Below are positions 3,292-58,251 of a DNA stretch of 64,000 bases, in pieces (within the stretch, counting starts at the first letter, position 1; each line of letters starts with the position of its first letter). The notes below the pieces were generated by a model. It saw only the letters and a list, made by a program, of their open reading frames with translations, made no database searches and was not told where the DNA came from. This DNA is from a virus. A program made the position numbers and the translations under genes. The stretch covers positions 1 to 64,000 of IMG/VR virus record IMGVR_UViG_3300029791_000002, one strand, 5' to 3'.

Positions 3292-4374
3292 TTGTTCCAC
3301 CCTGCAATCATGATCTTTGTTACGTGCTTCATGCACGTATGTTTAACAATTAAATACTATAAAATTATGGGTGGTGATAAAATCGTCCTTTTAGATGGAG
3401 CCGGGGCTAACGGTGGTGGTGCAGCCACTAACGGTCTTCTTTCAATGATTCCCGGCATGTTTGCTAATTTGATAGGTGGTAATAAAATGGATCCGAATCT
3501 GGTGGCGGCTTTGATGAACGGTCGTAACAACCAGGACGGTTTCGGTGGGGCTAACGGTTGGTGGCTCTGGATAATTGTTTTGTTCTGGCTGTGGGGTGGA
3601 CGCGGCTTCGGTAACGGTTTTGGAAATGGCGGTGATTGTTGCGCCAATGGTTTGCCGGCTCAGTTGAATAACGATTACGGTCGTGAACTTTTGATGCAGG
3701 CAATTCAAGGTAATCGTAGCGCCATAGATCAGATTGCTTCTGCTTTGAACTGTTCTACTACTCAACTTCAGAACGCTATCTGCAACGTACAGGGTGCTAT
3801 TGATAAAGTAGCTGGTCAGGTAGGTATGACTTCTCAGGCTGTTATCAACGCAGTTCAACAACAAGGTTGTGAAATAGGAAATCAAATCAGCTCTTGCTGC
3901 TGCAATCTGAGTTCGTTGATCAATCAAAGCACTTGCCAGACTCAGGGAATGATTACTCAGCAAGGTTTTGATAACCAGCTTCGCACGTTGGAACAAACCA
4001 ATATCTTGCAGAATGGTCTCAACCAAGGTCTGGCTAACAATCGTGAGCAAGCTACAAGCCAATTCAATATCTTGTCTGCGAAACTTGACGCCCAAACCGT
4101 TATGATCAACGACAAATTCTGTCAGTTGGAAATGAGGGAGATGCAGAACACTATTGCTCAACTTCGTGAAGAAAAAGCGGCTTTGACAGCTTCGGCATTA
4201 TCTCAGCAACAAACCCAGAATATCGTTGGTCAATTACGCCCGACGGCCGTCCCGGCCTACCCCTCTTGTTCTCCTTACCAGGCTTATACTTGGGGACAGG
4301 TATTCGGAGGAGGTTGCTGTAATAACGGATGCGGATGTAACAACGGATGTTGCAATAACAACGCTGCTGTCTGA
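3292..4374 (+). CDS. Gly/Asn/Gln/Cys-rich membrane-associated protein of unknown function (probable true start ATG 3367)
   Basis: GGxGNG-type glycine tracts, one Trp-rich TM segment (WWLWIIVLFWLWGG), Q/N-rich coiled-coil-like middle, C-terminal CCNNGCGCNNGCCNNN cysteine repeat. Confidence 0.55.
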   Translation: MFHPAIMIFVTCFMHVCLTIKYYKIMGGDKIVLLDGAGANGGGAATNGLLSMIPGMFANLIGGNKMDPNLVAALMNGRNNQDGFGGANGWWLWIIVLFWLWGGRGFGNGFGNGGDCCANGLPAQLNNDYGRELLMQAIQGNRSAIDQIASALNCSTTQLQNAICNVQGAIDKVAGQVGMTSQAVINAVQQQGCEIGNQISSCCCNLSSLINQSTCQTQGMITQQGFDNQLRTLEQTNILQNGLNQGLANNREQATSQFNILSAKLDAQTVMINDKFCQLEMREMQNTIAQLREEKAALTASALSQQQTQNIVGQLRPTAVPAYPSCSPYQAYTWGQVFGGGCCNNGCGCNNGCCNNNAAV

Positions 4375-4397
4375 TTTTATTAAGAAAGGAGGCTAAT

Positions 4398-4811
4398 ATG
4401 GCTTGTGTTTCTAAAATAGGATCGTTGTATGAGATGGTTACGAAGAATGTTATTGTCAGTACGACAAATACAGTCTTCGGTATTAACCCACGGGCTTGGA
4501 TCGCCCTTCCGTGTGAGGGTCTTATCCTTCTTAAGATAAGGCAAGTAGTCCCCACAGTCGGAAGTGCTCTACCGGTACAGATTGCGGTCCCGGCAAACAG
4601 CACAGTTTCAACAGTAGGAGCCGACACCTGTTGCCCGGTTACGGGAGTGAATGTCGTGAACCCTATTAACGTAGCTGTCACGGGTGCTGCTATGGTAAAT
4701 GGCACAGAACGCCTTCTGTACTTCAATAAAGTTCGTGGCGTGTTAAGATTAATGGATTGTTGTGTTCCAACAACAACAGCCCAGGCGTCTGAAGTTAAAG
4801 CAGGTAAATGA
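4398..4811 (+). CDS. hypothetical protein (137 aa)
   Basis: ORF preceded by a canonical AAGGAGG 7 nt upstream (4385-4391), unusual for this genome. Confidence 0.6.
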   Translation: MACVSKIGSLYEMVTKNVIVSTTNTVFGINPRAWIALPCEGLILLKIRQVVPTVGSALPVQIAVPANSTVSTVGADTCCPVTGVNVVNPINVAVTGAAMVNGTERLLYFNKVRGVLRLMDCCVPTTTAQASEVKAGK

Positions 4812-4861
4812 TTTCAGTAGGGTGATGGAGATCATCACCCTATTTTCACCTAACTAATATT

Positions 4862-5356
4862 TTGATCATGTTTTCAGATTTGAAGAAAGGGTTTCAGGTA
4901 CATACCCTTGATACTAATACAGTACCTAAATACGAATTGGGAAAGGTAGTAGCCGTATCCGAACCCAGGTATCTTCCTCCTCAGCCAGGTCAGTATCAGG
5001 CGATGCAGACCCGCGTGGTGGATCTGACGGTAGAGCTCACTGGCGAAACCAAGACCTACACGGTTCCGGAATCCCAGAATGTGGCTAAGGCTATGGGCAT
5101 AACATTATCTACCAGCATAGATCCGATTATGAACGAACTGAATGCCATAAAAAGCACCAGTCAGGAAATAATAGACAGCGTAGATGCCCATCGTGCCAAG
5201 ATAGAGGCTTGTGAATCTATATTAGAAGACATCAATCCGGCATTCAAACAAACGAGAGAGCAGGATCGTAAAATAGCTGGTATAGAAAATAAGGTGAATG
5301 ACCTTACTGATTCATTCGAAGATTTAAAGAAGTTAATTGTAGAACGTTTGAAATAA
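4862..5356 (+). CDS. hypothetical protein (164 aa, C-terminal coiled coil)
   Basis: ORF tiling in the + operon. Confidence 0.55.
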   Translation: MIMFSDLKKGFQVHTLDTNTVPKYELGKVVAVSEPRYLPPQPGQYQAMQTRVVDLTVELTGETKTYTVPESQNVAKAMGITLSTSIDPIMNELNAIKSTSQEIIDSVDAHRAKIEACESILEDINPAFKQTREQDRKIAGIENKVNDLTDSFEDLKKLIVERLK

Positions 5357-6815: not shown

Positions 6816-7027
6816 CTGTAGAAGAATTGGCTAATAAAAGATACAGTGGCGAATTTGTTTTCATGCTTGGTCATTTGGAAGGTATAACAAGATTCGTTTT
6901 TGAATGTTTTGATCCCAGACCTGATCACGAAGGTAAAAATACTTATATGGTTTCCTATTTTGATAAGGGACTTCGTAGAAGAGATGTGGTAGATGTGCCA
7001 TGTTATACGAATGTTTTAGCAAAATAA
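6812..7027 (+). CDS. hypothetical protein (71 aa)
   Basis: ORF translationally coupled (ATGA overlap). Confidence 0.4.
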   Translation: MTVEELANKRYSGEFVFMLGHLEGITRFVFECFDPRPDHEGKNTYMVSYFDKGLRRRDVVDVPCYTNVLAK

Positions 7028-7047
7028 ATTAAAATATTGTAAATATC

Positions 7048-7479
7048 GTGGTTAGAATCGCATATTTCGGAACCGATGGCCGTCCTGGTCATTACGCTAT
7101 TCCGATACGAGGTAAATTCACAGAAGAGGATATTAAGGTAATAGAATCTGTAGATTGTGATGATTTCTATAAGGTGTTTGACGTTATGCGTTTTAAGATA
7201 GCTGAGTTTAAAGGATGGACGATATTAGGAATCCCGGCAAGCTTAGACGATCATAGACCTGGAAGCAAAACCGTTATCTTCATAGAGGGTAAAGCTAACG
7301 AAACTGACTTTATGGAAGTTATACAAGAGTATTCTTTTCTTAAAAATAAGGTAAAGAAACTTGCCGAATTGTATCATGATGGAGAATGGCTTGCGACTGG
7401 TAAATTGAATCAAGATCCGCCTACTAACAAGGAGCGGTTTCAATTTACTATCTTTAACAAAGCCCCTGCTTTTAAGTAG
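7048..7479 (+). CDS. hypothetical protein (143 aa)
   Basis: ORF. Confidence 0.5.
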   Translation: MVRIAYFGTDGRPGHYAIPIRGKFTEEDIKVIESVDCDDFYKVFDVMRFKIAEFKGWTILGIPASLDDHRPGSKTVIFIEGKANETDFMEVIQEYSFLKNKVKKLAELYHDGEWLATGKLNQDPPTNKERFQFTIFNKAPAFK

Positions 7480-7580
7480 GAGATCAATGATTCTTTTATT
7501 CATATATGTATTCTTTAATAATTGATTCTGATATATGCCAAAAAGTTATTATTATATTTGTATTATAAATGTGGTTAAAA

Positions 7581-7938
7581 ATGATTTCATACAAATACAA
7601 CATCTATCATTCAAAGAAAACGAAGTATCTTGATAAGATGCTTCGCGAATGCTGTTTTGTATGGAATCATGCTTTAGCTCTACAACGTAGATATTACAAA
7701 CTGTTTGGGAAATACATCTAACGCTACCAAGATCCTCGTCAAGACCTTTAGAGGCAAGTTGTTCAAGAAAGCTTTTGGAAGAGCTCGTAGAGGAAAGGAT
7801 ATTAGTTCTTTTGAAAGACAGGAAAAAGAAAGTGGTTTCAATTTTCTACACAATCATAATAATGGTCGTATGCGAAGCGGTCATATTGTAATAAACGGAA
7901 TTGGTATGTTTAAACAAATAATGAAGTCGGGTACGTGA
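7581..7938 (+). pseudogene. tnpB: frameshifted remnant of a TnpB (IS200/IS605 OrfB) N-terminal region
   Basis: 46-aa ORF 7581-7721 MISYKYNIYHSKKTKYLDKMLRECCFVWNHALALQRRYYKLFGKYI matches the canonical TnpB N-terminus (YKYRIYP...G..RFVWNH.L). It continues in another frame (7705-7938) with TnpB-like segments (KLFKKAFGRARRGK, NGIGMFK ~ LPKLGWVK). No RuvC motifs follow. Confidence 0.55.
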
Positions 7939-8291
7939 GTTATCCGACTTTTTCGTATATTTGTGGCATGGCAAAAGGTTATTATTGGATACCACAAACA
8001 GATGAAACGTTAAATGGCATAAGCTATTACGTGACTAAGGTAGTAGGAGATATAGTGTTTGATACTAAACGAAAAAGAATAGTGTTTCAAACTACCAGGT
8101 ATTTCCCAGTAGGCTCCGTATTCCATTTTACTCACAACTGCTTTAAATACGTCATAACCTGCCGGCTCCGTAAGCCGGGGCTGTGGTATGAGGCAAGGAG
8201 GGAAGACTGCGGACCTATTGGACCGGATGATGTGGAAAGGTTCGAATCAGGAAGGTTTATTCATAGAAATGGGTACAAATATAATGCGTAA
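7935..8291 (+). CDS. hypothetical protein (118 aa), possibly a further degenerate part of the TnpB remnant
   Basis: ORF; weak resemblance only. Confidence 0.3.
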   Translation: MSYPTFSYICGMAKGYYWIPQTDETLNGISYYVTKVVGDIVFDTKRKRIVFQTTRYFPVGSVFHFTHNCFKYVITCRLRKPGLWYEARREDCGPIGPDDVERFESGRFIHRNGYKYNA

Positions 8292-8431: not shown

Positions 8432-11400
8432 ATGGCGTCAACGTGTATTATTAAAAGAGATAATAAAAAGAAAGTTGTTTCTGTCTCTACCAGATCAGGG
8501 GACAGGTCTATGTTGTTTGATAAAATAGCATCTATTCCTCTTATGGAAAATAGGGAGCGGGCTACTACTGTTTTTAAAACCGTATTTTCTAATAAGTTCT
8601 TAAAGGCTTTTGGCGACTGGAGAAAGAGAGTGCCTATCAACAAACCGGCTTATAATAAGGTAAAATCCAACATCGATCTTATTCCGGAAGCCTATAGAGA
8701 AAGGGTGCTGGATAAGGCTTCTAAGATGAGTAATCCTGTTCTTGTGTCAAAATCAGATGCACCTTATGAAATCCGAGAATCGGGCTTTGGATTCTACAGC
8801 CAAGATCTGGGTGATAATATTATGTTGGTGGATGCTATGGTTCCGTCAAGTATTTCCGTACCGGAAGGACCTGGAATAGACGCCGGTCAGTATCTACAAG
8901 ATACTATATCTTCGGACTTCACCCCCGTATCTATGGTACAGGATAAGGGTGTTAATTATATGGTTATAAAAGACGGTCTTAAGATATTTAGCCCAGAAGA
9001 GTTACCACAGACAGATTCTAATCCTGTGGGTGTAACGTATCAGACCGGAGAGCCTCGTTTGTTTTTCATGAACGATCGTAATCAATTATTTGAAGATTAC
9101 GGAGAAGCTCTTCGCTCTGGCGGGAATGATATTAGAATAGGATTCTTGTCAGGCACCGTTCAAGAATCTGCCTGGGATGGCGTGGCAGACATTACTTACA
9201 AGGCTGGAAAGTATGTTCTTAATAATCCAAAATCTTTTATACCGGTCATGACCGCTTCTGCTTCCACTTCTTTATCAACAAAAGGTGGTATAATTAACTA
9301 CCTTATAAAGAAAGGTCTTTTGTCCGGATCTAAGATATTCGATCCTGAAACAAGAAGCTATTATCTTACAGGAGAAGGTCATACAGGACAAATTAGACTT
9401 TTCAATTCAGCCTTATCCTACACTGAGCTCCGTAATCATTTTGGTTCCGATGTTTCCATGAACGACCAAGGTATGATAACCATAAGCTCGTTGGATAACA
9501 GTAAGGTAACGATGAGACTCGCCACCGGAGGAACGGAAAGGGTTAGCAAAGAGCAGATAAAGAACGATCTTAAGTCAGGAAGATACAATGAATTGGACGC
9601 CAAGTACGATCATTTTGATGCGCTTGTAGTTTCATTCATATTAGAAGACAACGATCTTTATGCTGATACTAAAGCTAAGATCGTATCGGATTATAGCAGG
9701 CAGGAACGTGACCAACGAAATTCTATTGTCGAGATACTGAAAACTCTTGGCGTTAGTGTCATAGGTATGACCGACTATATAGAGAAGTACCAAACCAAAT
9801 ACGGGCATGAACCTTCTGCTAAGGCATTGGCGGATATTGCCAATAACGTAATAGCAGTTGGTGAAGATGCTACTTTATCCGATTTAGTAGAAGAAACAGC
9901 CCACTTCCTTGTAGAGGCATACAGAGATCAGAATGCTGTTGAGGCTGTTCTGCAAGATGTAGAAGGTACGGAAGAGTGGAACCAGTATGCAGGTCAGTAT
10001 TATAATACATACGGTAAGGTATATGAAGGATCTGAGCTTGATAATGCCGTTAGGAGAGAAATTCTTGGAAAGATCCTCGCCAGGGAGATGCAGACCGGCA
10101 CAGCGCAGGCGTCGGTAGAGCCCACCTCCTTCCTGGGGCGCGTCCGGCAGCTTCTCTCTGGAATCGTAAGCTGGCTTAAATCAGCTTTATCAACCCAAAG
10201 ACAAGATTTGAATAACGTTATTAAAAACATTCGTGATCTTGCCATTACTGACATAGATAAAGGATTTGACACCTCTCTGTTAAAGGATAATGACTTTACA
10301 TTATACTCCCTTTCTTCTATGAACAAGAACAAGTTTCTTGAGTCTAAGATCAGATCGCTAAGAAAAACATTAAGAGACTTACGTCAGATAAGCTCTGATA
10401 GGGCTGTAACTACGTCTATGACCCTTGCGCAGCTTAAGACCATAGAAGATAAGATAAATAAGGTAGAGACCGAAATAGACAAGAATGAGATGGCGGCTGC
10501 CATGAACAGCATGATCTCTACAGCCGAAGCTCAGGTCAGATACTTAAGCAATGTGGTGAACACCATCCTTCATGGTGATACCAAAGACGGCAAGCTTCAT
10601 TTCAATACCAATGATCGAAAGAACGTAGATATTATCAACAATCAGGTTCTTCCGATCATGAACGATCTTCGAGGATATATCCGTAACAGAAGTACCGAAT
10701 TTGATGAACGTGAAAAGCAGGATTATACAAATAGGATCAATACCGTCATTGCCGACATCAATGGTATTCAGTCTGATATTAAATCAGTACAAGACCTTGA
10801 TGAAAGCACGTTGCTTGATAAGTTAATGAACGAACTTCATGTGCCGGCAGATAAGGTAAAGAGAGTAAAAGAATTTTTCGACAAGGTTCAACACGATGTT
10901 TCTTGGATAAGTAGGTGGTTTGGTATATTAGAGCATTCTTCCAGTCCGTTCAATAACGCTCTTGGAGCTATGATTGCCAAAGACAATTACAATGCGATGG
11001 TGAATGCCCAGCCCGCCATATCCGATTTCCTGGCATATGCGAAAAAGCATGGTTTTAACAAATCTGAATTTGAAAAACTGCTTCAGAAAGTAGATGGCAA
11101 AACTTCTAATTACCTTCGTAGTGCTCTTGATATGGCTAAATACGATCGTAATAAGAAGCTGGCGCAGATGCGAGCGTTTGCGACTGCCATGAACATAGAG
11201 ATATCAGAAGAAGAAATTGGTGATGTGGTTGACAATAACCGTAATTACGTATTTAAAAGAGAAGTAGTTGACAAGGATGGAAATACGGTTACTGAAAACG
11301 CTAAATTCAAACCATCGTCTGATAGAGTTAATACCGATATTTTTACCATCGAGCAGGAAAAGATCTATACAGAGCAGATGGAAAAGTGGGATGCTGAAAA

Positions 11401-14400
11401 TTCGGAACTGGAATTTAGCGAAAGTTATGCCACAAGAATGGAATCCATATACAAAAAGGCTGAAGAAGAATTAGGGCATCCGGTTTCTCAAACAACCAAA
11501 GAATACCTTAATGCTCTATCCAGGCAAAAACGGATATTGAGGCAGCCTTTTATTGATAGCGGTGGTAATTTTGATGAGGTTGCCTATTTTAAAAGCAGCA
11601 ATTACGAAGAAGAAGGACTGCTTCGTAAACAACGTAAGGAAGCAGCTTCAGAATACATATATGTAGGAACCAGGAGAGTGGAAAAAACCGGCGACCAACT
11701 TAAGATGGCTAAAGAAATACAAGCTATAAATGAAGTTTGGAGAAAGGAATCAAATAATGTTACCAATGCCGTATCAGAATCGTTTTTGCAAAAATTAAGA
11801 ACGATTCAGAGCGAGTCGGGAGGAGAAGCTGCGCTGAAGACACTTATGTTGGGAGGTCACCTGTCGTTCAATGATCGGTTTTGGAATGAAGTAGAATCGG
11901 AACAGTCGGCGCGTACCGAATCAAATAACAAGGCTTCGTATCTTAAAATGGCGCATGATATCATTAGTTCTACGACAAGTGATAGAGATGCGACTGACGT
12001 GGATTCGATTGTGAAAGATATAGAAAAAAATAAGGCCATTATCAAGGAAATAATCGGAAACAACCGAGATGTGGCTGATATCGGAGAAATTAACGAAGCG
12101 ACATTTACCTCATCTGAAAGAGATGCTTTTAGGGCCGCATCTGAAGCTATTGAAGCTGATTACGCTATCTTAATAGATTATGCTAAGATGGTGGGTCTTG
12201 AAGATATTGATAAGTACCTTACTAAAAGCAGTAAGGCCGAAAACGAAGTAAATCAGTCTTATTTAAATGCTCTTGCTGACTCCAAGGAAGTGGAATGGAA
12301 GTTCGTACAACGTCATACTACGGCGAAGAAAGCAAAAAGGATTCAGGCTTTAAGGGATAAGCTGTTTAAGGCTGCTGATAACCGATATCTGTTTACCGTA
12401 TCTGAAACCAACTACCTGTCAGAAAAGCTTGGTATAAGCAAAGAATTAGACGGTAGAGATTTCAGGAATGCTGTTAATGCTAAGATGGCCAGCTTGTTTT
12501 TAAATAATACAAGAGAAGAGGGCATAGAAGAGACCAATGCTATTGTTAATGAATTTGCCAGGAGCCAGGTCTTTTCGTACTATAAACGCATGGCGCCTAC
12601 CGGATATGCGGCCATGATCGACAAAATAGGTCGAGGTGAGATAGATGTGGCGCAGATGGTTAAGGACGTACAAAACGGTACATCCACCCAAGATTATGGC
12701 ATGGACATATCGTACCTGTCTTTCGATCCTGCAAGGGCATGGGTGGCTGAATCTGAAGCCGAAAATAGCGGCCGTAATCCTGATTATGTAAAAGATCATG
12801 GGTATGGTCATCGAATGCCTAAGAAAAGCCTGTATCGTGATGAATCGTATTTCAATGACTTTGGTATCAAGTATGATGCTGACGGTAATGAAGTTGCTAC
12901 TAAAAACGTAGAGCAGTGGAATATGATTCAAAAACTCAAGGAAATAAAAAGACAATCGCTTGATCTATACAAAGAGCAGAGTCCTAATCTGTATGCTATT
13001 CCACAGATATCAAAACAAGACATAGAACGTGTAGAAGGATTGGGTATTAACTTCAAAAATACGGTTCGTAATTTTGTATCAGATCTGTGCCTGGACAGAG
13101 TAGACGATTCTCTATATGGTAAGACCAGGCAAGGGGAAGTATATGATCCGGAAGACAGACTTAGGTCTATACCTAAATACTACATATATGAGTTGGAGAA
13201 CCAAGATGATGTATCTCACGATTTTGGCTACTCTTATTCGATGCTTATGATGCAGTCATCGTTATATAACGAAAAGCAGAAGTCTATAGAGCTTGCCCAA
13301 GGACTGGAGCAGATGTTACTGAATAAACAATTTGAAGGCGGTAAGAAGGCTGAAGCAACCCAAGCATATCAGATGTTCAGGGACTTCTTCAACGATCATT
13401 ATTATGGCATTAGGATGAACACCAAAAAACTTACGGTGAACATCGGAGGATATACGGTAGACCTTACAAGAATTATGATGGCTGTTGAAAGATTTATGTC
13501 GGTTATGAACCTGGCACTGTCTCCGTTTGTGGCAGCTACCGGCGCCCTGACAGGTCATATCAACCTCATCATGGAATCTGCCGTAGGACAGTATATAAGC
13601 AAAGACTCCCTTAAATACGCATCGGCTGAGTTTTCACGTCTTGCGCCATCTTGTATAGCAGAAACCGGAGACATAGATAGGAAAAGCAAATTATATGTCA
13701 TAGGTGAGAGAATGGGGATATTCAATATCCGAAATCGTATGTATGGTGCCGGATACAATAGAGCGGCCAGGACCTTAATGCGTTCGCCTATGTATGCTTT
13801 TATGGAAATCCTGAACTACCCTCTTGATCCGCAGGTTATGATTGCTACTATGGACAATGTTCGTTATTACAAAGGCCGGTTCTACACGTTCCAAGATTTC
13901 AAGATGGAAAAAGAACGCAATAAAGAACAGAGTACCATAAAAAGAGAATGGAACGCATTAAAAGATCGTACTTTATGGAGTATGGTAGACGTCGTGGATG
14001 GGAAGGTGGTTGTAAAGCCAGGATCGGGTGTTACTGTTGAGGAAGTAGAAACCCAGATGGCTATAACCAGAAATCAAGTTCGTAGCTTGTCGCAGATATG
14101 CAACGGATCTTTGAATGAAGAAAACCGAACTGCCGCATCGCGCAACTGGATAGCCAGGTTCATGACCGCCCACCGAGGATGGTTGGTGCTGTCGGCTCAA
14201 CGTCTGTGGAAAAGACGTGGCTTCAATTTCCAGACAATGCAAGAAGAGGAAGGGTTGTCAATTACGTTAAAGAATATGATAGCCAAAACATTTAGCCTGG
14301 CTTCCGAGTCTGGTATGAAAAACATCATAGATGCCTGGAATGAAAATAAAGACAATATGAATGAGGTAGAAAAAACCAATCTCAAACGTCTCAGTGTCTA

Positions 14401-14854
14401 TGCCGGCACGTTCCTTATCATGCAGGCCGTATCTATGCTTCTTGCCGGATGGCGTGATGATGATGAAAACGAAGAAAGTTGGCTTACTCAATTTGGATCC
14501 TATGTCGGATTCAGAACCATAAACGAAATAGCTTCACAGATGCCGTTTATTATGGAGCTTAACGTGGTAGATATCATTAACGATCCGTTTGTTATGGGGC
14601 GAAAACTGAAGGATCTTACCGATCTTAGGAATTATTCACTTGATAAAGTAACATCCGGTACATACAAGGGAGAGTCTAAGTTATTTAGGCAACTCGCCAA
14701 ACAGACGTTTATCAAACAATGGTATAATATCAAGACGCCGGAAGACGTAGCGCGCGCCTATAATTGGTGGCAGCAGACGAACAACAAGTCAATGATGTTC
14801 TTCATCGGCGCTACTCCTGATTCGGAAGGGGACGATGATGTTAGCTACAAGTAG
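8432..14854 (+). CDS. giant 2140-aa protein of unknown function (candidate virion-packaged/ejected protein)
   Basis: Single 6.4-kb ORF ending at a strong terminator; mixed alpha/coiled-coil composition; no polymerase or enzymatic motif recognised by eye. Confidence 0.8.
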   Translation: MASTCIIKRDNKKKVVSVSTRSGDRSMLFDKIASIPLMENRERATTVFKTVFSNKFLKAFGDWRKRVPINKPAYNKVKSNIDLIPEAYRERVLDKASKMSNPVLVSKSDAPYEIRESGFGFYSQDLGDNIMLVDAMVPSSISVPEGPGIDAGQYLQDTISSDFTPVSMVQDKGVNYMVIKDGLKIFSPEELPQTDSNPVGVTYQTGEPRLFFMNDRNQLFEDYGEALRSGGNDIRIGFLSGTVQESAWDGVADITYKAGKYVLNNPKSFIPVMTASASTSLSTKGGIINYLIKKGLLSGSKIFDPETRSYYLTGEGHTGQIRLFNSALSYTELRNHFGSDVSMNDQGMITISSLDNSKVTMRLATGGTERVSKEQIKNDLKSGRYNELDAKYDHFDALVVSFILEDNDLYADTKAKIVSDYSRQERDQRNSIVEILKTLGVSVIGMTDYIEKYQTKYGHEPSAKALADIANNVIAVGEDATLSDLVEETAHFLVEAYRDQNAVEAVLQDVEGTEEWNQYAGQYYNTYGKVYEGSELDNAVRREILGKILAREMQTGTAQASVEPTSFLGRVRQLLSGIVSWLKSALSTQRQDLNNVIKNIRDLAITDIDKGFDTSLLKDNDFTLYSLSSMNKNKFLESKIRSLRKTLRDLRQISSDRAVTTSMTLAQLKTIEDKINKVETEIDKNEMAAAMNSMISTAEAQVRYLSNVVNTILHGDTKDGKLHFNTNDRKNVDIINNQVLPIMNDLRGYIRNRSTEFDEREKQDYTNRINTVIADINGIQSDIKSVQDLDESTLLDKLMNELHVPADKVKRVKEFFDKVQHDVSWISRWFGILEHSSSPFNNALGAMIAKDNYNAMVNAQPAISDFLAYAKKHGFNKSEFEKLLQKVDGKTSNYLRSALDMAKYDRNKKLAQMRAFATAMNIEISEEEIGDVVDNNRNYVFKREVVDKDGNTVTENAKFKPSSDRVNTDIFTIEQEKIYTEQMEKWDAENSELEFSESYATRMESIYKKAEEELGHPVSQTTKEYLNALSRQKRILRQPFIDSGGNFDEVAYFKSSNYEEEGLLRKQRKEAASEYIYVGTRRVEKTGDQLKMAKEIQAINEVWRKESNNVTNAVSESFLQKLRTIQSESGGEAALKTLMLGGHLSFNDRFWNEVESEQSARTESNNKASYLKMAHDIISSTTSDRDATDVDSIVKDIEKNKAIIKEIIGNNRDVADIGEINEATFTSSERDAFRAASEAIEADYAILIDYAKMVGLEDIDKYLTKSSKAENEVNQSYLNALADSKEVEWKFVQRHTTAKKAKRIQALRDKLFKAADNRYLFTVSETNYLSEKLGISKELDGRDFRNAVNAKMASLFLNNTREEGIEETNAIVNEFARSQVFSYYKRMAPTGYAAMIDKIGRGEIDVAQMVKDVQNGTSTQDYGMDISYLSFDPARAWVAESEAENSGRNPDYVKDHGYGHRMPKKSLYRDESYFNDFGIKYDADGNEVATKNVEQWNMIQKLKEIKRQSLDLYKEQSPNLYAIPQISKQDIERVEGLGINFKNTVRNFVSDLCLDRVDDSLYGKTRQGEVYDPEDRLRSIPKYYIYELENQDDVSHDFGYSYSMLMMQSSLYNEKQKSIELAQGLEQMLLNKQFEGGKKAEATQAYQMFRDFFNDHYYGIRMNTKKLTVNIGGYTVDLTRIMMAVERFMSVMNLALSPFVAATGALTGHINLIMESAVGQYISKDSLKYASAEFSRLAPSCIAETGDIDRKSKLYVIGERMGIFNIRNRMYGAGYNRAARTLMRSPMYAFMEILNYPLDPQVMIATMDNVRYYKGRFYTFQDFKMEKERNKEQSTIKREWNALKDRTLWSMVDVVDGKVVVKPGSGVTVEEVETQMAITRNQVRSLSQICNGSLNEENRTAASRNWIARFMTAHRGWLVLSAQRLWKRRGFNFQTMQEEEGLSITLKNMIAKTFSLASESGMKNIIDAWNENKDNMNEVEKTNLKRLSVYAGTFLIMQAVSMLLAGWRDDDENEESWLTQFGSYVGFRTINEIASQMPFIMELNVVDIINDPFVMGRKLKDLTDLRNYSLDKVTSGTYKGESKLFRQLAKQTFIKQWYNIKTPEDVARAYNWWQQTNNKSMMFFIGATPDSEGDDDVSYK

Positions 14855-15065: not shown

Positions 15066-15554
15066 CTAAGCATTAACTTCATGACCTTCCCTATCTGTGA
15101 AAACTAAACCAATACCTTCTATGATATATCCTACTACAGGAGCTTTGTCAAATTCCTCCTTCGTAGCCCAGGTAGCATTATCAGGCATCAGATCCTTAAA
15201 TGCGTCCGAAACATCACCTTGGCACCAGCAGTTATTTGATACAACAATGCCTTTCCCTTCGATATTGATATACATCTTTCTTCCACCGCATCCAAGGCTG
15301 TTCCATCCGCTCGGTACGTTTTTCACCATAGGCTTAAGCACCCAGCTTTTACCGTCTATCCTAACCCATCCAGGATCGTCTTTGTGCTTGTCGTACATAT
15401 TTTGCCAAAAAGAGCATTCGTAGCACCATCCCCTGTCTTCCATGACCGTTCTTATCTCACACCTTTCAAATCCATCTGCATCCATCGTGTGCGGAGAATG
15501 AGGCTGGTGAGGGGTGCCACATTTTGGACATACGAGTTTCAAATTATTTTTCAT
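15066..15554 (-). CDS. Cys-rich hypothetical protein (162 aa)
   Basis: ORF; CPKCG and several further Cys/His suggest metal binding. Confidence 0.5.
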   Translation of the reverse strand: MKNNLKLVCPKCGTPHQPHSPHTMDADGFERCEIRTVMEDRGWCYECSFWQNMYDKHKDDPGWVRIDGKSWVLKPMVKNVPSGWNSLGCGGRKMYINIEGKGIVVSNNCWCQGDVSDAFKDLMPDNATWATKEEFDKAPVVGYIIEGIGLVFTDREGHEVNA

Positions 15555-15555
15555 A

Positions 15556-15792
15556 TTATTTCACTTTTACGATTTTAATAGAATCTCCTATATTGTATTC
15601 CCCTTGGTATCCAACGAATTTTATAAGCCTATTATTATAAAATATTGAAATTCTTTCGTCTTCACCATAATACATTATACATCCATCTTCTAAAGGACGT
15701 AAATCATATATAACCCATCCGTTATTAACCTGACTATCATCATGCGAACATGATGATAACACAAGTGCCATCAATAAAACAAAATACCTCAT
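15556..15792 (-). CDS. small putative lipoprotein (78 aa)
   Basis: N-terminal signal MRYFVLLMALVLSSC with lipobox-like LSSC. Confidence 0.45.
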   Translation of the reverse strand: MRYFVLLMALVLSSCSHDDSQVNNGWVIYDLRPLEDGCIMYYGEDERISIFYNNRLIKFVGYQGEYNIGDSIKIVKVK

Positions 15793-15799
15793 GTTATTT

Positions 15800-15991
15800 T
15801 CAACATAAAAATTTATAACCTGGTTTTACTGCCTCTGCTTCTTCTCTCGTATCAAACATTAATGTAGTAGTTGATTCTGTACCTTCACAAATGTAAGATA
15901 CTTCCACCCACCACCTAAAAATCCCAGAGCCATAATCATCATAGTACGGCTCAGAAAGAACTTCTTCTACATACCCATCCAAATAATTCAT
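15800..15991 (-). CDS. hypothetical protein (63 aa)
   Basis: ORF tiling. Confidence 0.35.
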   Translation of the reverse strand: MNYLDGYVEEVLSEPYYDDYGSGIFRWWVEVSYICEGTESTTTLMFDTREEAEAVKPGYKFLC

Positions 15992-16734
15992 GATCGCTCC
16001 TCCTTATTTTTAGATTCTGATTCTTCGAGTATGCTAATTACCTTATCGACAATATCCGAATCAGACATTTTCTCAATAAAAACATCCATTGCCTTAGTTA
16101 TGTTATTGGCTTCTTTTTCTTCAAGAGCTATTTCTCCACCGGTAATAGCATCAGACAATGATGTAGATAAGTGTCTTATCTTATCAATGCTCATAAACGT
16201 AAATGGATTACCACCTTGACCTCCACCCATTTCTTTCATGATCTGATATCCACCTGAGATAAGTCTGCCTGATGTCGTAGCCAAGGAGGATACGATTAGG
16301 GACAGTACCGCCGCTTCCGTCCGCTCCTCGGACACACCCCTCGACCACACGGCTGCCCTTATAGCGCCGGCCAGGTCGTCTATGTATGGCATGAGGCAAT
16401 CTTCCATCGCTTGTGTTATATCAGCTATAACCTCACTACGCTCTTTATTTATGTAGTAGATAGAAGCATTGTACCTCTTTATCTCTTTGTCCATATCATT
16501 CAAAAATCGTTTGACATTATGTTTGTACATAGGACCACCCTTAATCACTTCCTTCAGCTTAAGAATGTAATTATAAGCCTGGTCGTTTACGAACAACGTC
16601 ATGGTTTCAACCGTCGAATGAAGCGTGTTGAGGCTGTTAAGAATCTTATCGAAATTGTTTATCAAATAAGCTCTTCTGGCTTTTGCTGCGTAGTTAATGT
16701 TATTAAAATTATTCATTTTATTCATTAGATTCAA
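15988..16734 (-). CDS. hypothetical protein (248 aa; annotated start is TTG, first ATG at 16725)
   Basis: ORF immediately downstream of tnpB; contains a ~90-bp GC-rich island (16296-16385). Confidence 0.55.
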   Translation of the reverse strand: MNLMNKMNNFNNINYAAKARRAYLINNFDKILNSLNTLHSTVETMTLFVNDQAYNYILKLKEVIKGGPMYKHNVKRFLNDMDKEIKRYNASIYYINKERSEVIADITQAMEDCLMPYIDDLAGAIRAAVWSRGVSEERTEAAVLSLIVSSLATTSGRLISGGYQIMKEMGGGQGGNPFTFMSIDKIRHLSTSLSDAITGGEIALEEKEANNITKAMDVFIEKMSDSDIVDKVISILEESESKNKEERS

Positions 16735-16741
16735 CCTTATA

Positions 16742-17932
16742 TCACAAAATATTTATTCTAACCGGATTAAACACAAATCCACTATCGATTATCTTTCCAA
16801 TGAAAGAATCACCGACTACTTTTCTTGCTATTCCTATAGCTCCATTAATATCAGCATTAATTAGCTTTCCAACGGAACTTTGGAATAATCCACGTTTCTT
16901 TCTTTTCCCTAAATAGGATTCTTGTTTCTTTAGAGGTTCAAAAGCAAGATGGTCAATCTTTGATGTGTAAGATTCCTCATGAGTAATTACCTCTATCCCT
17001 AAAAGATTTGCTTTGTAAACAATCTTATCAATCAATTTAGAATGAGGAATAGAAACAAAATGTTGGTTATTCCTTTTACCGATATTTATCTCGTTTTTCC
17101 ATTCTTTGTTTAATCCAATGATGATTGTTCCTATATTGTTAGATTTACAAAAGTCTACAATGTATCTACTGATTTTATGCAATTTGTCTTCTATCCAACA
17201 ATTTCTAAACAAAGTAATTTTTCTTATTCTATTTGAAGTTCCCTTATTACCAACAAAAGACATCAACTTAGCTTTCTTCTTATTGTACCACTGATTTACT
17301 GATTTCATAACCCGTCCGTTTATAATGAAAGAATTAGTTTCTACATTACTAATACATGAACATAAATTATTCAATCCTAAATCAATCGAAAGAAAATTGT
17401 CTTTGTTTAAACCAAGATCAGTTTCCTTTCTTTCATAAACTACCTCTACTACATAACATGTAGCTTGAGGGATTATTCTAACTTGTTTTAGTTCGTCTTT
17501 CTTTACATTTGTTTTGATAGGTTTGATTATATCTTTAACAAAATAAATACAATTATCACCCTTTACCCTACAATTGCAGTTGGTGAAAACAACCATGTTT
17601 TGTTTCTTACCTTGTTTGTATGATGGAAGGTGAGGTCTATGATTTCCGTATTTAGAAGGATTCTTTTCAAAATCCTTCTTGAGTTTTATCCAGGATTTTA
17701 TGTTTTTAAATACCTGTTTAATCACCTGTTGGGATACATGATTAGGTAAATTCCTGAAATCGAATTGGTTTTCTTTGCAAAGTTTGTTTGATAAATCAAA
17801 TTCCTTTAAATAGTTACCTGAAAAGATTCCTTGACGAATGTTGTAAAGAACATAATTATATAACAAGCCGGATTTGAAGCAAATATCCTCAAACCGGTTG
17901 TCTTTAACTATATGCCTTTCAACTAATCTCAT
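16742..17932 (-). CDS. tnpB: TnpB-family RuvC-like nuclease (IS200/IS605 OrfB / OMEGA effector), zinc-finger-less
   Basis: Collinear with ISDra2 TnpB. RuvC-I SIDLGLNN and RuvC-II LLGIEVITHEE are present, then ESYTSK (YTSQ motif) and RuvC-III NADINGAIGIARK. The expected CxxC...CxxC zinc finger between RuvC-II and RuvC-III is replaced by a Lys-rich Cys-less segment. Confidence 0.85.
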   Translation of the reverse strand: MRLVERHIVKDNRFEDICFKSGLLYNYVLYNIRQGIFSGNYLKEFDLSNKLCKENQFDFRNLPNHVSQQVIKQVFKNIKSWIKLKKDFEKNPSKYGNHRPHLPSYKQGKKQNMVVFTNCNCRVKGDNCIYFVKDIIKPIKTNVKKDELKQVRIIPQATCYVVEVVYERKETDLGLNKDNFLSIDLGLNNLCSCISNVETNSFIINGRVMKSVNQWYNKKKAKLMSFVGNKGTSNRIRKITLFRNCWIEDKLHKISRYIVDFCKSNNIGTIIIGLNKEWKNEINIGKRNNQHFVSIPHSKLIDKIVYKANLLGIEVITHEESYTSKIDHLAFEPLKKQESYLGKRKKRGLFQSSVGKLINADINGAIGIARKVVGDSFIGKIIDSGFVFNPVRINIL

Positions 17933-17985
17933 TTGAATGATTTATATCGTAAATGTAATCGTTATTTGTAAAATAATCAAATTAT

Positions 17986-18528
17986 TCAATCATCGCATTC
18001 AAATTTTAGATTTTCAAGTTCATGTATTTGTAACTTAAGAGACTTAATTAAATCCGTTCTCTGTTCCTCTGCATGTTTTAAAGCCTCTTCCTTGCTTTCA
18101 AAAGCACAATCCCCTATCTGATAAGGGGTGTAACGACCAGGAGTGTCGGCTAATAAAAGACCACCACAATCTTCTATTCTGGCTTTTACCTTTCTTATTT
18201 TCCCATCTTTTAGACACATGTCTGTAACCCATACGAATTTACCATATAATTTATCATACTCTTCTGATCTCTCTTCTTGCAATTCATACCATTTAGGCTT
18301 AGGAAATCTTAATGTGAATTTAACCTCAGTATCTTTTTCTAAGACATTAATATCGTATGCTTCCGGCCACAGCTCTTTTATGCTGTCTTCGTCTTCGGCA
18401 TACGCTACAAGTATGAATGAATCATCGGATTCACCACTACACCAATATGGATATTTTATAGGCCATTTGACTGGACGGTAGTCGTTACCGCAGTCGGATT
18501 TTTTAATGTAAAATCTTGCTCTAATCAT
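17986..18528 (-). CDS. hypothetical protein (180 aa)
   Basis: ORF. Confidence 0.55.
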   Translation of the reverse strand: MIRARFYIKKSDCGNDYRPVKWPIKYPYWCSGESDDSFILVAYAEDEDSIKELWPEAYDINVLEKDTEVKFTLRFPKPKWYELQEERSEEYDKLYGKFVWVTDMCLKDGKIRKVKARIEDCGGLLLADTPGRYTPYQIGDCAFESKEEALKHAEEQRTDLIKSLKLQIHELENLKFECDD

Positions 18529-18535
18529 ATCGTTA

Positions 18536-18847
18536 TTAATCTGATAATTTTTCTATTTTAATTAATTTTGATGATAGATACATATTCCATTTCCCTCTGC
18601 CTCTGTCACCTTTTTCGTTTTGTTTTTGGATTGTCAAGTACAGATCTCCGTCTTCACATACTTCAACTTTTTTCAAGAAGCCTATCATTTCATCTCCTGC
18701 TTCGTGTAAAATACGGATCTTATCTCCTTCTTTTAACCCATAATTGGAATCAAAATATTCTTTTTTGATTCTATCAATGTTGTCTTTATGGTTTTTTATA
18801 GCATAAAGCTCTTTTCTTAATAAATAATTTAGTTGTTCTATTGTCAT
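18536..18847 (-). CDS. hypothetical protein (103 aa)
   Basis: ORF. Confidence 0.5.
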   Translation of the reverse strand: MTIEQLNYLLRKELYAIKNHKDNIDRIKKEYFDSNYGLKEGDKIRILHEAGDEMIGFLKKVEVCEDGDLYLTIQKQNEKGDRGRGKWNMYLSSKLIKIEKLSD

Positions 18848-53842: not shown

Positions 53843-53859
53843 TGTCTTACTTTTTTTAG

Positions 53860-53931
53860 AGGCTTGTGGCGGAATCGAACCGCCCTACGAGATTTTGCAG
53901 ATCCCTGACTAAACCACTCATCCAACAAGCC
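53860..53931 (-). tRNA. tRNA-Cys (GCA)
   Basis: Cloverleaf folded by hand: acceptor GGCTTGT/ACAAGCC, D-stem GATG, anticodon stem GGGAT/ATCTC with loop CTGCAAA, T-arm GGCGG-TTCGATT-CCGCC; no encoded CCA. Confidence 0.75.
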
Positions 53932-53934
53932 ATG

Positions 53935-54006
53935 TAGCCCATGCCTGAATCGAACAGGCAACTTTTGATTAGGACTCAAAGGTTTTATCCGTTAAACTAA
54001 TGGGCC
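53935..54006 (-). tRNA. tRNA-Arg (CCU)
   Basis: Acceptor GGCCCAT/ATGGGCT (G1:U72), D-stem GTTT/AAAC, anticodon stem TTTGA/TCAAA with loop GTCCTAA, T-arm GCCTG-TTCGATT-CAGGC. Confidence 0.7.
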
Positions 54007-54075
54007 GTTTAATGTTTGCTATGTTCACACACCGCAAACACTGAGATAATTAACATTTCCACAAAAACTTAATCG

Positions 54076-54146
54076 TTATCCAAGGAGGATTCGAACCTCC
54101 GATAACAGAACCAAAATCTGTTGTGTTACCACTACACCATTGGACA
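54076..54146 (-). tRNA. tRNA-Gln (UUG)
   Basis: Acceptor TGTCCAA/TTGGATA, D-stem GTGT/ACAC with loop AGTGGTA, anticodon stem ACAGA/TCTGT with loop TTTTGGT, T-arm GGAGG-TTCGAAT-CCTCC. Confidence 0.7.
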
Positions 54147-54147
54147 G

Positions 54148-54220
54148 TGGTCCCGGAGGGATTTGAACCCACGATCTTGCGGTTATGAGCCGCCTGCTTT
54201 CACCACTAAGCTACAGGACC
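54148..54220 (-). tRNA. tRNA-Met (CAU) (elongator Met, or Ile2 if lysidinylated)
   Basis: Acceptor GGTCCTG/CGGGACC, D-stem GCTT/AAGC with loop AGTGGTGA, anticodon loop CTCATAA, T-loop TTCAAAT. Confidence 0.7.
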
Positions 54221-58154: not shown

Positions 58155-58251
58155 TTTTTTAAAACTTACGATTATGACTATCTAACACTGCAAATGTATT
58201 ATTTTAAAATCTAATTACGAATTAATCTATTTTAAAATGATTTAAAATAGA

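Follow-up and report, generated by a model that had tools for sequence, protein, structure and literature searches.

The 64,000-nucleotide (nt) stretch analyzed here, hereinafter referred to as the window, comprises positions 1 to 64,000 of the IMG/VR virus record IMGVR_UViG_3300029791_000002. On its minus strand, at 16742 to 17932, lies an open reading frame (ORF) of 396 amino acids (aa) that an earlier interpretation of the same DNA without database searches (the sequence-only reading) had described as a TnpB-family RuvC nuclease gene. We found the ORF exactly there, and we assign it to TnpB, an OMEGA-type RNA-guided nuclease, because it matches NCBIfam guided_TnpB (NF040570; 157.8 bits against a cutoff of 100, 4.6e-46, residues 18 to 371), the Pfam families OrfB_IS605 (PF01385; 1.3e-17, 64.5 bits, cutoff 30.5) and Cas12f1-like_TNB (PF07282; 8.2e-8, 32.7 bits, cutoff 26.3), and PHROG 506 “transposase” (1.3e-36). 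An AlphaFold2 model built on 100 homologs (predicted local distance difference test score, 92.9; predicted TM score, 0.88) confidently adopts the TnpB/Cas12f/Fanzor2 fold. In Foldseek, the model matched AsCas12f (8e-17), the ISFba1 TnpB (8.5e-13), the ISDra2 TnpB (1.6e-11), and mimivirus Fanzor2 (2.6e-11), and profile comparison against PDB likewise returned Cas12f and the ISDra2 TnpB. The gene is wedged between two phage genes in the same orientation, 53 nt from the upstream gene (17986 to 18528) and 16 to 17 nt from the first ATG of the downstream gene, in line with the 17 bp and 53 bp given in the sequence-only reading.

Comparison with the phage csAssE-Sib (OR575929; locus L001 in our set) revealed that the gene sits in a discrete, polymorphic insertion. 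csAssE-Sib is 97% identical to the window on both sides and lacks the TnpB insertion: window positions 15066 to 16698 align with 3001 to 4633 of L001, and positions 17984 to 18528 align with 4628 to 5171. The inserted element is therefore 1,292 nt long, occupying 16697 to 17988 on the minus strand, with boundaries that are ambiguous by up to 3 nt owing to a GAT/ATT repeat at the junction. Its right boundary at 16697 was set independently by a second phage record, MT835500, and by 80 further IMG/VR loci. The G+C content is 27 to 31% inside the element and 33 to 45% in the flanks. The sequence-only reading had proposed looking for the locus with and without the insertion in related phages, and both states exist, csAssE-Sib being empty and other alleles being occupied.

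The insertion point falls where the two flanking genes overlap in csAssE-Sib as ATGATTAA (...GAT GAT TAA / ATG ATT AAT TAC...), with the downstream gene beginning ATGATTAATTAC. Read on the minus strand, the element runs TGAATAATTTG...AATTTTAATAACAT, and in the window it is preceded by GCGATGAT and followed by TAACTACGC. Both neighboring ORFs survive the insertion. On the left, the first bases of the noncoding left end (LE; 17933 to 17988, minus strand) give the upstream phage gene its TGA stop (17986 to 17988), and the original ATG of the downstream gene is now stranded left of the element at 17989 to 17991. On the right, two ATG codons inside the right end (RE; 16723 to 16725 and 16714 to 16716, minus strand), read from the sequence, share the reading frame of the downstream phage gene, which runs ATG AAT AAA ATG AAT AAT TTT AAT AAC ATT AAC TAC into that gene. 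The LE has a core, (R)GTTGAAT-A/T-ATTTG-TTTATTTTA, that lies ~57 nt upstream of the tnpB ATG and is common to many copies, including copies in unrelated flanks. A second presence/absence polymorphism adjoins the TnpB insertion: between homologs of the window genes at 17986 to 18528 and 18536 to 18847, csAssE-Sib has a 1.1-kb DNA (cytosine-5)-methyltransferase gene (L001, 5168 to 6295) that is missing from the window (~18529 to 18546).

The 3′ end of the element is a conserved RNA structure that is supported by covariation and ends exactly at the element boundary. An RNAalifold consensus of 25 diverse copies places a scaffold at 16697 to 16886 (minus strand), i.e., in the final ~190 nt of the element, overlapping the last ~145 nt of the tnpB ORF and the 45 nt between the tnpB stop and the element end. 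It consists of seven short helices within 16830 to 16886, 16785 to 16815, 16764 to 16780, and 16724 to 16762, followed by an A/U-rich tail (16697 to 16723). Pairing was observed in 97.4% of cells among the 25 copies versus at most 52.6% with slid registers, compensatory changes were found for 10 pairs versus 5.6 ± 1.2 in column shuffles, none of 500 shuffles reached any of five measures, and the single-sequence fold of the window scaffold had a z score of −3.1. Because this structure is conserved and conservation stops abruptly at 16697 in all copies, we predict an architecture of the omega-RNA (reRNA) type, with the flanking DNA serving as the guide. In TnpB systems, the guide is specified by the DNA immediately beyond the right end (PMC10711439, PMC10691335). 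By this rule, the predicted guide segment would be approximately TAACTACGCAGCAAAAGCCA (16677 to 16696, minus strand, directly 3′ of the conserved right end), with a putative length and first base; the segment also constitutes the opening codons of the downstream phage gene and is different at each insertion site. The sequence-only reading had expected a guide RNA running from the ORF 3′ end into the next gene (~16650 to 16800), to which the predicted scaffold and guide come close. A search of Rfam for a known omega-RNA, RAGATH-18, or a group I intron gave no match, either with the gathering score across the whole window or with E ≤ 5 within 16500 to 18100. A scan of the element for sigma-70 promoters and terminators showed no enrichment and is uninformative, given that the host is probably Bacteroidota-like, with different promoters.

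To place the active site, TnpB was aligned with 123 full-length representatives (35 to 50% identity) from an exhaustive HMMER search, giving 124 sequences. The RuvC-I aspartate of IDLG (D184; codon at 17381 to 17383, minus strand, as for all codons below) is invariant in these sequences and in a second alignment (A4), and the RuvC-III aspartate of NADIN (D361; 16850 to 16852) is invariant in all 124; both align with the RuvC motifs of Cas12f and TnpB. The canonical RuvC-II position, at the end of the beta-strand IIIG (after beta-4), aligns in profile comparison with the Cas12f “MEDL” motif. It is occupied by glycine in 124/124 sequences (G273 in IIIG-LN; 17114 to 17116), the canonical glutamate being absent, and no conserved acidic residue was found at the ten following positions (274 to 283) in the 124 sequences. 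A glutamate that precedes the site of the first zinc-finger cysteine by six residues (E320, in EESYTS; 16973 to 16975) is present in 123/124 and matches the definition of the alternative RuvC-II glutamate (Ealt) in PMC10711439. The sequence-only reading had named three RuvC motifs plus YTS; IDLG, NADING, and YTS (residues 322 to 324) are indeed in invariant columns, but its “GIE” is not RuvC-II, as the E314 column is variable (K26/E24/N21 of 124).

The CxxC...CxxC zinc finger, which the sequence-only reading had reported missing, is absent: the window TnpB has no cysteine between YTS and NADxN, and the cysteines of Cas12f (CSEC...CRAC) face noncysteine residues in the profile-to-PDB alignment. 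Among the 124 homologs, the number of cysteines in this segment is zero in 33, one in 77, and two in 14, with no sequence reaching three, and the segment length (~36 aa) is kept. Such features have precedents. Altae-Tran et al. describe large clades in which the RuvC-II glutamate is changed to glycine and compensated by another glutamate, a rearrangement that fits G273; zinc-finger loss in some large TnpB branches; virus enrichment of some rearranged branches; and a predominance of solo tnpB elements (PMC10691335). Both traits, the missing zinc finger and the relocated glutamate, are common to all 124 homologs checked and are therefore clade-wide rather than special to the window gene, and both are already published; the relocated glutamate marks a subtype and does not exclude membership in TnpB. 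Judged by conservation, D184, E320, and D361 form a triad of the published relocated-glutamate type. Ealt TnpBs and Fanzors were active in experiments (PMC10711439, PMC13565253), and Ealt TnpBs and the RIIr TnpBs are described as active or probably active (PMC10711439, PMC10691335). The window TnpB is therefore likely catalytically competent, as the sequence-only reading had surmised from its motifs. Purifying selection on tnpB is strong, with a ratio of nonsynonymous to synonymous substitution rates (dN/dS) of 0.05 to 0.13 against ten family members; tnpB is intact in at least 77 of 82 copies, and EESYTS and NADxN are present in all 82 phage copies.

The element belongs to a large family. More than 150 relatives (70 to 100% aa identity) occur in ~150-kb human-gut phage contigs of IMG/VR, 80 of which were fetched as loci for comparison of their ends. 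They represent at least 26 distinct insertion sites, with two copies on some contigs, and all fetched copies share the right end ...AATTTTAATAAC(A/G)T followed by unrelated sequence, the boundary corresponding to window position 16697. The LE and RE are unrelated to each other in sequence. In one locus, L063, tnpB is preceded by a gene for a 194-aa TnpA with a Resolvase domain (PF00239, 6.8e-20), an HTH_17 domain, and the serine-recombinase motif YGRVSTSKQ; its stop overlaps the tnpB ATG, and an LE homolog stands upstream of tnpA. MT835500 has a 30-aa TnpA remnant and a tnpB that appears frameshifted, and relatives in Helicobacter pylori phages (~42% identity) adjoin resolvases. A serine-recombinase TnpA was sought in the window and the other 80 loci and was found in none, leaving one intact TnpA in 82 loci (L063). 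No Y1 TnpA was present in the window or beside tnpB at the locus ends inspected, no dedicated Y1 search of all loci having been made, and a second element copy was sought in the window and not found. Given the full unit in L063, the remnant in MT835500, and the lack of TnpA in the window, the window element is best described, from these comparisons, as a tnpA-less, nonautonomous IS607 derivative rather than a complete IS607.

The absence of a nearby Y1 transposase from the window thus agrees with the sequence-only reading, whose IS605 frame is not retained: the only associated transposase is a serine recombinase, and the IS605/Y1 model was rejected. That reading had also taken a full insertion sequence with TnpA in a homologous phage to speak against its proposal, and L063 harbors one. 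As for the group I intron that characterizes IStrons, no Rfam family was found at the 5′ end, where the LE spans only ~56 nt.

Several copies show how varied the family is. In L063, the autonomous IS607 unit (tnpA plus tnpB, 3417 to 5231) and a second, solo copy (6848 to 8080, 72% aa identity), which has the identical LE variant AT-GATTGAAT, lie 1.6 kb apart with one 481-aa gene between them; two copies are likewise present on each of contigs 113423 and 105904. The L036 group (L033 to L042, L046, and L057), together with L047 and L049, has no recognizable left end, and the flank or a terminator hairpin runs nearly to the tnpB ATG (to ~15 nt upstream, with the ATG at 4001). These copies keep an intact tnpB and the right end and could probably no longer be moved by TnpA. 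The closest GenBank copy (MT835500.1, L002; 4001 to 5187; 82% aa identity) is split into ORFs of 109 and 233 aa and is either a true pseudogene or, its record being flagged “UNVERIFIED,” the product of a sequencing error. In DNA sequence, the 5′ third of this copy is far more diverged than its 3′ two-thirds (88% identity, window 17544 to 16697), which suggests a recombinant element. More distant TnpB paralogs (43 to 52% aa identity) lie a few kilobases from the element in L007 (6219 to 7433), L026 (11 to 1171, minus strand), and L060 (6430 to 7200, minus strand), and csAssE-Sib has a distant paralog at another locus (64190 to 65410), so that these phages host more than one TnpB lineage.

Using right-flank sequence, we found empty alleles for ~12 sites among the fetched loci. 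Every empty site has AT directly before the right-flank sequence, and in 8 of the 12, this AT belongs to the ATG start of a downstream co-oriented gene; the preceding base is G in seven, T in four, and C in one. The pattern is clearest in L022, where the empty allele is GGAAGGATG|AATTTAGG and the occupied allele is GGAAGG-AT-[GGTTGAAT...AATAAC]-AT-GAATTTAGG. For most of the 12 sites, an AT or RT dinucleotide stands at each of the two junctions, apart from some A/G mismatches, an arrangement that fits the IS607 crossover model by analogy with the same-dinucleotide principle set out for serine recombinases (PMC10711439). A first reading of the target-adjacent motif (TAM) from left flanks alone, AT[GA][GA]T, was revised, since the empty alleles show that only AT is target and that the following RGT constitutes the first three bases of the LE; searches for the exact junctions that the first model predicted at empty L022 and L066 sites found nothing.

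When the terminal triplet of the element is taken together with one flank base, it reads ATG or GTG at 18 of the 26 sites, and at 17 this is exactly where an ORF of 50 codons or more begins, with an open frame expected by chance at 27% of random positions. In most cases, members of the element family lie directly against the ATG of a gene in the same orientation, and the terminal AAC-(A/G)T-G re-creates a start codon. The window itself contains the empty allele of a second insertion site, GCAGTGTTAGAT|AGTCATAATCG (58169 to 58191, minus strand), which is occupied in IMG/VR locus L021 by a 90%-identical family copy.

At the window's own site, 116 contigs were sampled, comprising 20 occupied, 89 empty, and 7 other alleles (~17% occupied, ~77% empty). 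The haplotype that exactly matches the predicted guide, TAACTACGCAGC, is carried by 17 of the 20 occupied alleles versus 4 of the 89 empty ones; in the other empty alleles, that of csAssE-Sib included, the differences from the predicted guide are synonymous and fall on third codon positions (target positions 4, 7, and 10). Four natural haplotypes of the empty site are CCA (the perfect match), TCA, CTA, and TCG. In 19 other occupied loci, the element is 97.1 to 100% identical to the window copy. The immediate flanks, by contrast, fall to 80 to 82% identity in L003, L007, L010, L014, and L017, and right flanks are typically 92 to 95% identical; in L003, L007, and L010, a left flank at 80 to 82% adjoins an element at 99.6 to 99.9%. 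The element is far more conserved than its flanks. Because it is 99.6 to 100% identical where flanks are only 80 to 95% identical, these comparisons indicate recent movement of the element, at one and the same site, from one diverged background to another. Minimal target specificity has been reported for IS607 TnpA (PMC4058570), which alone would not achieve same-site spread. The pattern fits RNA-guided homing, which the sequence-only reading had listed among its options. Homing has been described for IS605 TnpB (PMC10055086, PMC10690162), and “non-restorative homing” into co-infecting phages has been put forward as a concept (PMC13565253).

We therefore consider it likely that the locus is a nonautonomous TnpB/omega-RNA element of the IS607 family, ~1.29 kb long, that has lost tnpA and is probably homing among gut phages. 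According to this scheme, an IS607-family insertion composed of LE, tnpB, and the omega-RNA/right end, with its serine-recombinase tnpA deleted, would have entered at an AT dinucleotide within ATGATTAA, where the stop of one phage gene overlaps the start of the next. TnpB would bind an omega-RNA whose 3′ guide is the first ~16 to 20 nt of the downstream gene, and recombinational repair off an occupied genome would copy the element into the cut one. Killing of competitor genomes that are not repaired would be a side effect, and new sites would probably be seeded by rare autonomous copies that provide TnpA in trans. The element is polymorphic and selfish, and RNA-guided homing between related gut phages is the most likely means of its maintenance.

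The sequence-only reading had raised the alternative of a domesticated effector, a fixed RNA-guided weapon against the host or competitor phages that is no longer mobile. The window has no transposase, tnpB is tightly packed and co-oriented with its neighbors, and the gene is under strong purifying selection, all of which suits such a role, as does the incidental harm that cutting of empty sites would do to co-infecting relatives (concept in PMC13565253). Yet a fixed weapon should not be a discrete 1,292-bp insertion that is absent from a 97%-identical phage and from ~77% of the genomes sampled at its site. Nor would it be expected at 26 or more sites, with LE and RE retained and an autonomous relative in existence, or with a guide that is whatever flanks the right end and so points to its own locus type rather than to host or fixed competitor sequence. 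We regard domestication as improbable. The case for an inactive TnpB, either a decaying remnant or a TldR/dCas12f-like RNA-guided DNA binder, would draw on G273 in place of the canonical glutamate, on the lack of cysteines in the TNB segment, and on the best single-sequence PDB match, a nuclease-deactivated Cas12f (E = 2.4e-4 over 80 residues). It is opposed by E320 at the published Ealt position in 123/124 sequences and the invariance of D184 and D361, by the experimental activity of Ealt TnpBs and Fanzors (PMC10711439, PMC13565253), by the low dN/dS, by a guide that varies with the flank, unlike the fixed guides of the TldR type, and by an element more conserved than its flanks. The TldR-like interpretation was rejected on the conservation of the triad, and a nuclease-dead protein of any kind seems highly improbable.

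A more serious contender, if still an unlikely one as a full account, is transposition in trans, in which TnpA from autonomous IS607 copies moves the solo elements and TnpB acts only as an accessory or retention factor. An autonomous copy does exist (L063), many solo copies keep a recognizable LE, the 26 distinct sites could not have been created by homing alone, and the RT dinucleotide at both junctions is what a serine-recombinase crossover would leave (PMC10711439). Against it, an intact TnpA was found in only 1 of 82 loci, near-identical elements occupy exactly the same site in backgrounds 5 to 20% apart despite the minimal specificity reported for TnpA (PMC4058570), and the LE-less copies of the L036 group keep tnpB and the RE and occur in several backgrounds. 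Movement in trans is in any case complementary to homing rather than exclusive of it.

Several points also weigh against homing as the preferred explanation. The unequal distribution of haplotypes over occupied and empty alleles could reflect nothing more than linkage to a single founding insertion, and the mismatch between element and flank divergence could have arisen if ordinary recombination swept a segment that had been acquired recently. A single large metagenome project (3300045988) is the source of most loci. The window and L029 junctions are 3 to 4 nt off a simple model with an AT core at both ends, a register shift for which slippage in GATGATGAT is a possibility. Finally, known IS607 elements have GG cores and G-rich TAMs, and the AT rule derives from the present comparisons only.

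The free-standing homing endonuclease genes of T-even phages (Seg and Mob) are likewise small, selfish nuclease genes wedged between conserved phage genes and polymorphic in presence and absence among relatives. The window element resembles them in its predicted spread during co-infection and in the candidate resistant target alleles; it differs from them in that target recognition is predicted to be RNA guided and that self and nonself would be set by presence or absence of the insertion rather than by protein-DNA contacts. Among TnpB systems, the ISXfa1-type Ealt TnpBs (Yoon et al. 2023, NAR, PMC10711439) share with it a serine-recombinase partner, a glutamate six residues before the zinc-finger position, a reRNA that ends at or just beyond the right end, and a matching dinucleotide at both junctions. 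However, those proteins keep the CxxC...CxxC zinc finger, which is part of the search pattern in that study and is missing from the window clade, and their crossover/TAM is GG/GGG, whereas that of the window element appears to be AT based (~KAT). The RIIr clades and zinc-finger-less branches (Altae-Tran et al. 2023, PNAS, PMC10691335) are alike in glycine at the canonical glutamate position with an alternative glutamate, in NADxN, in the zinc-finger loss reported for some large branches, in the virus enrichment of some rearranged branches, and in mostly solo tnpB; the start-codon insertion pattern of the window family is not described in that paper. Fanzors and pro-Fanzors differ in RuvC-I, which is DPG in those proteins and IDLG in the window TnpB.

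The ISFba1/RAGATH-18 TnpBs (Ren et al. 2024, Cell Res, PMC11061315; PDB 8iaz) are similar in IS607 association, size (~390 aa), and overall fold. They nevertheless have the canonical glutamate (D194/E290/D371) and the TAM AGGAG, in contrast to the relocated E320 of the window TnpB, and their reRNA is wholly intergenic with RAGATH-18, whereas the RNA predicted here overlaps the ORF and matches neither RAGATH-18 nor any other Rfam family. In ISDra2 and other IS605 elements (Karvelis 2021, PMC8612924; Meers 2023, PMC10055086), the omega-RNA also overlaps the tnpB 3′ end, the right-end flank also serves as the guide, and cutting of the empty site has also been proposed to drive copying. These elements differ in their Y1 (HUH) TnpA, single-strand “peel and paste” transposition, canonical glutamate, zinc finger, and TAM (TTGAT), and their homing was shown within bacterial chromosomes and plasmids and not between co-infecting phages.

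The lack of a zinc finger, the lack of a transposase, and the odd RuvC-II are ordinary for a large, catalogued TnpB clade, and the gene itself is not a discovery. Of more value, if moderate, is the natural allele set of one gut-phage lineage, in which occupied and empty alleles by the dozen stand beside an autonomous relative, derivatives without an LE, and candidate resistant targets. With such a set, “non-restorative” homing of TnpB between co-infecting phages becomes testable; this type of homing is a concept in reviews, and no documentation of it for phages was found in the literature searched. We tentatively suggest, while holding the idea somewhat more doubtful than not, that the IS607-derived, transposase-less TnpB lineage is an RNA-guided analog of the free-standing phage homing endonucleases adapted to compact phage genomes, one that inserts nearly silently at the A-T of ATG start codons of co-oriented genes and sweeps through the population by cutting empty alleles. 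The right end (...AAUAAC-R-U-G) would then have two roles, terminating the omega-RNA scaffold at its 3′ end and giving the displaced gene a new start codon and leader, and the sweep would leave behind alleles with synonymous seed mismatches. If the right end does rebuild the start codon, the insertion would be near-silent for the displaced gene, and such rebuilding may help a gene-dense virus to tolerate a transposon. The combination of AT/ATG-linked insertion and a right end of this kind departs from the GG/G-rich rule of characterized IS607 elements. A compact (396-aa), zinc-finger-less Ealt-type TnpB with a putative A/T-rich TAM could also interest genome-editing groups.

Elsewhere in the window, four tRNA genes (Cys-GCA, Arg-CCU, Gln-UUG, and Met-CAU) lie at 53859 to 54220 on the minus strand. 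A 2,140-aa ORF at 8432 to 14854 on the plus strand ends ~200 nt away from where the block of minus-strand genes begins, and its homolog in csAssE-Sib is annotated as a “structural protein.”

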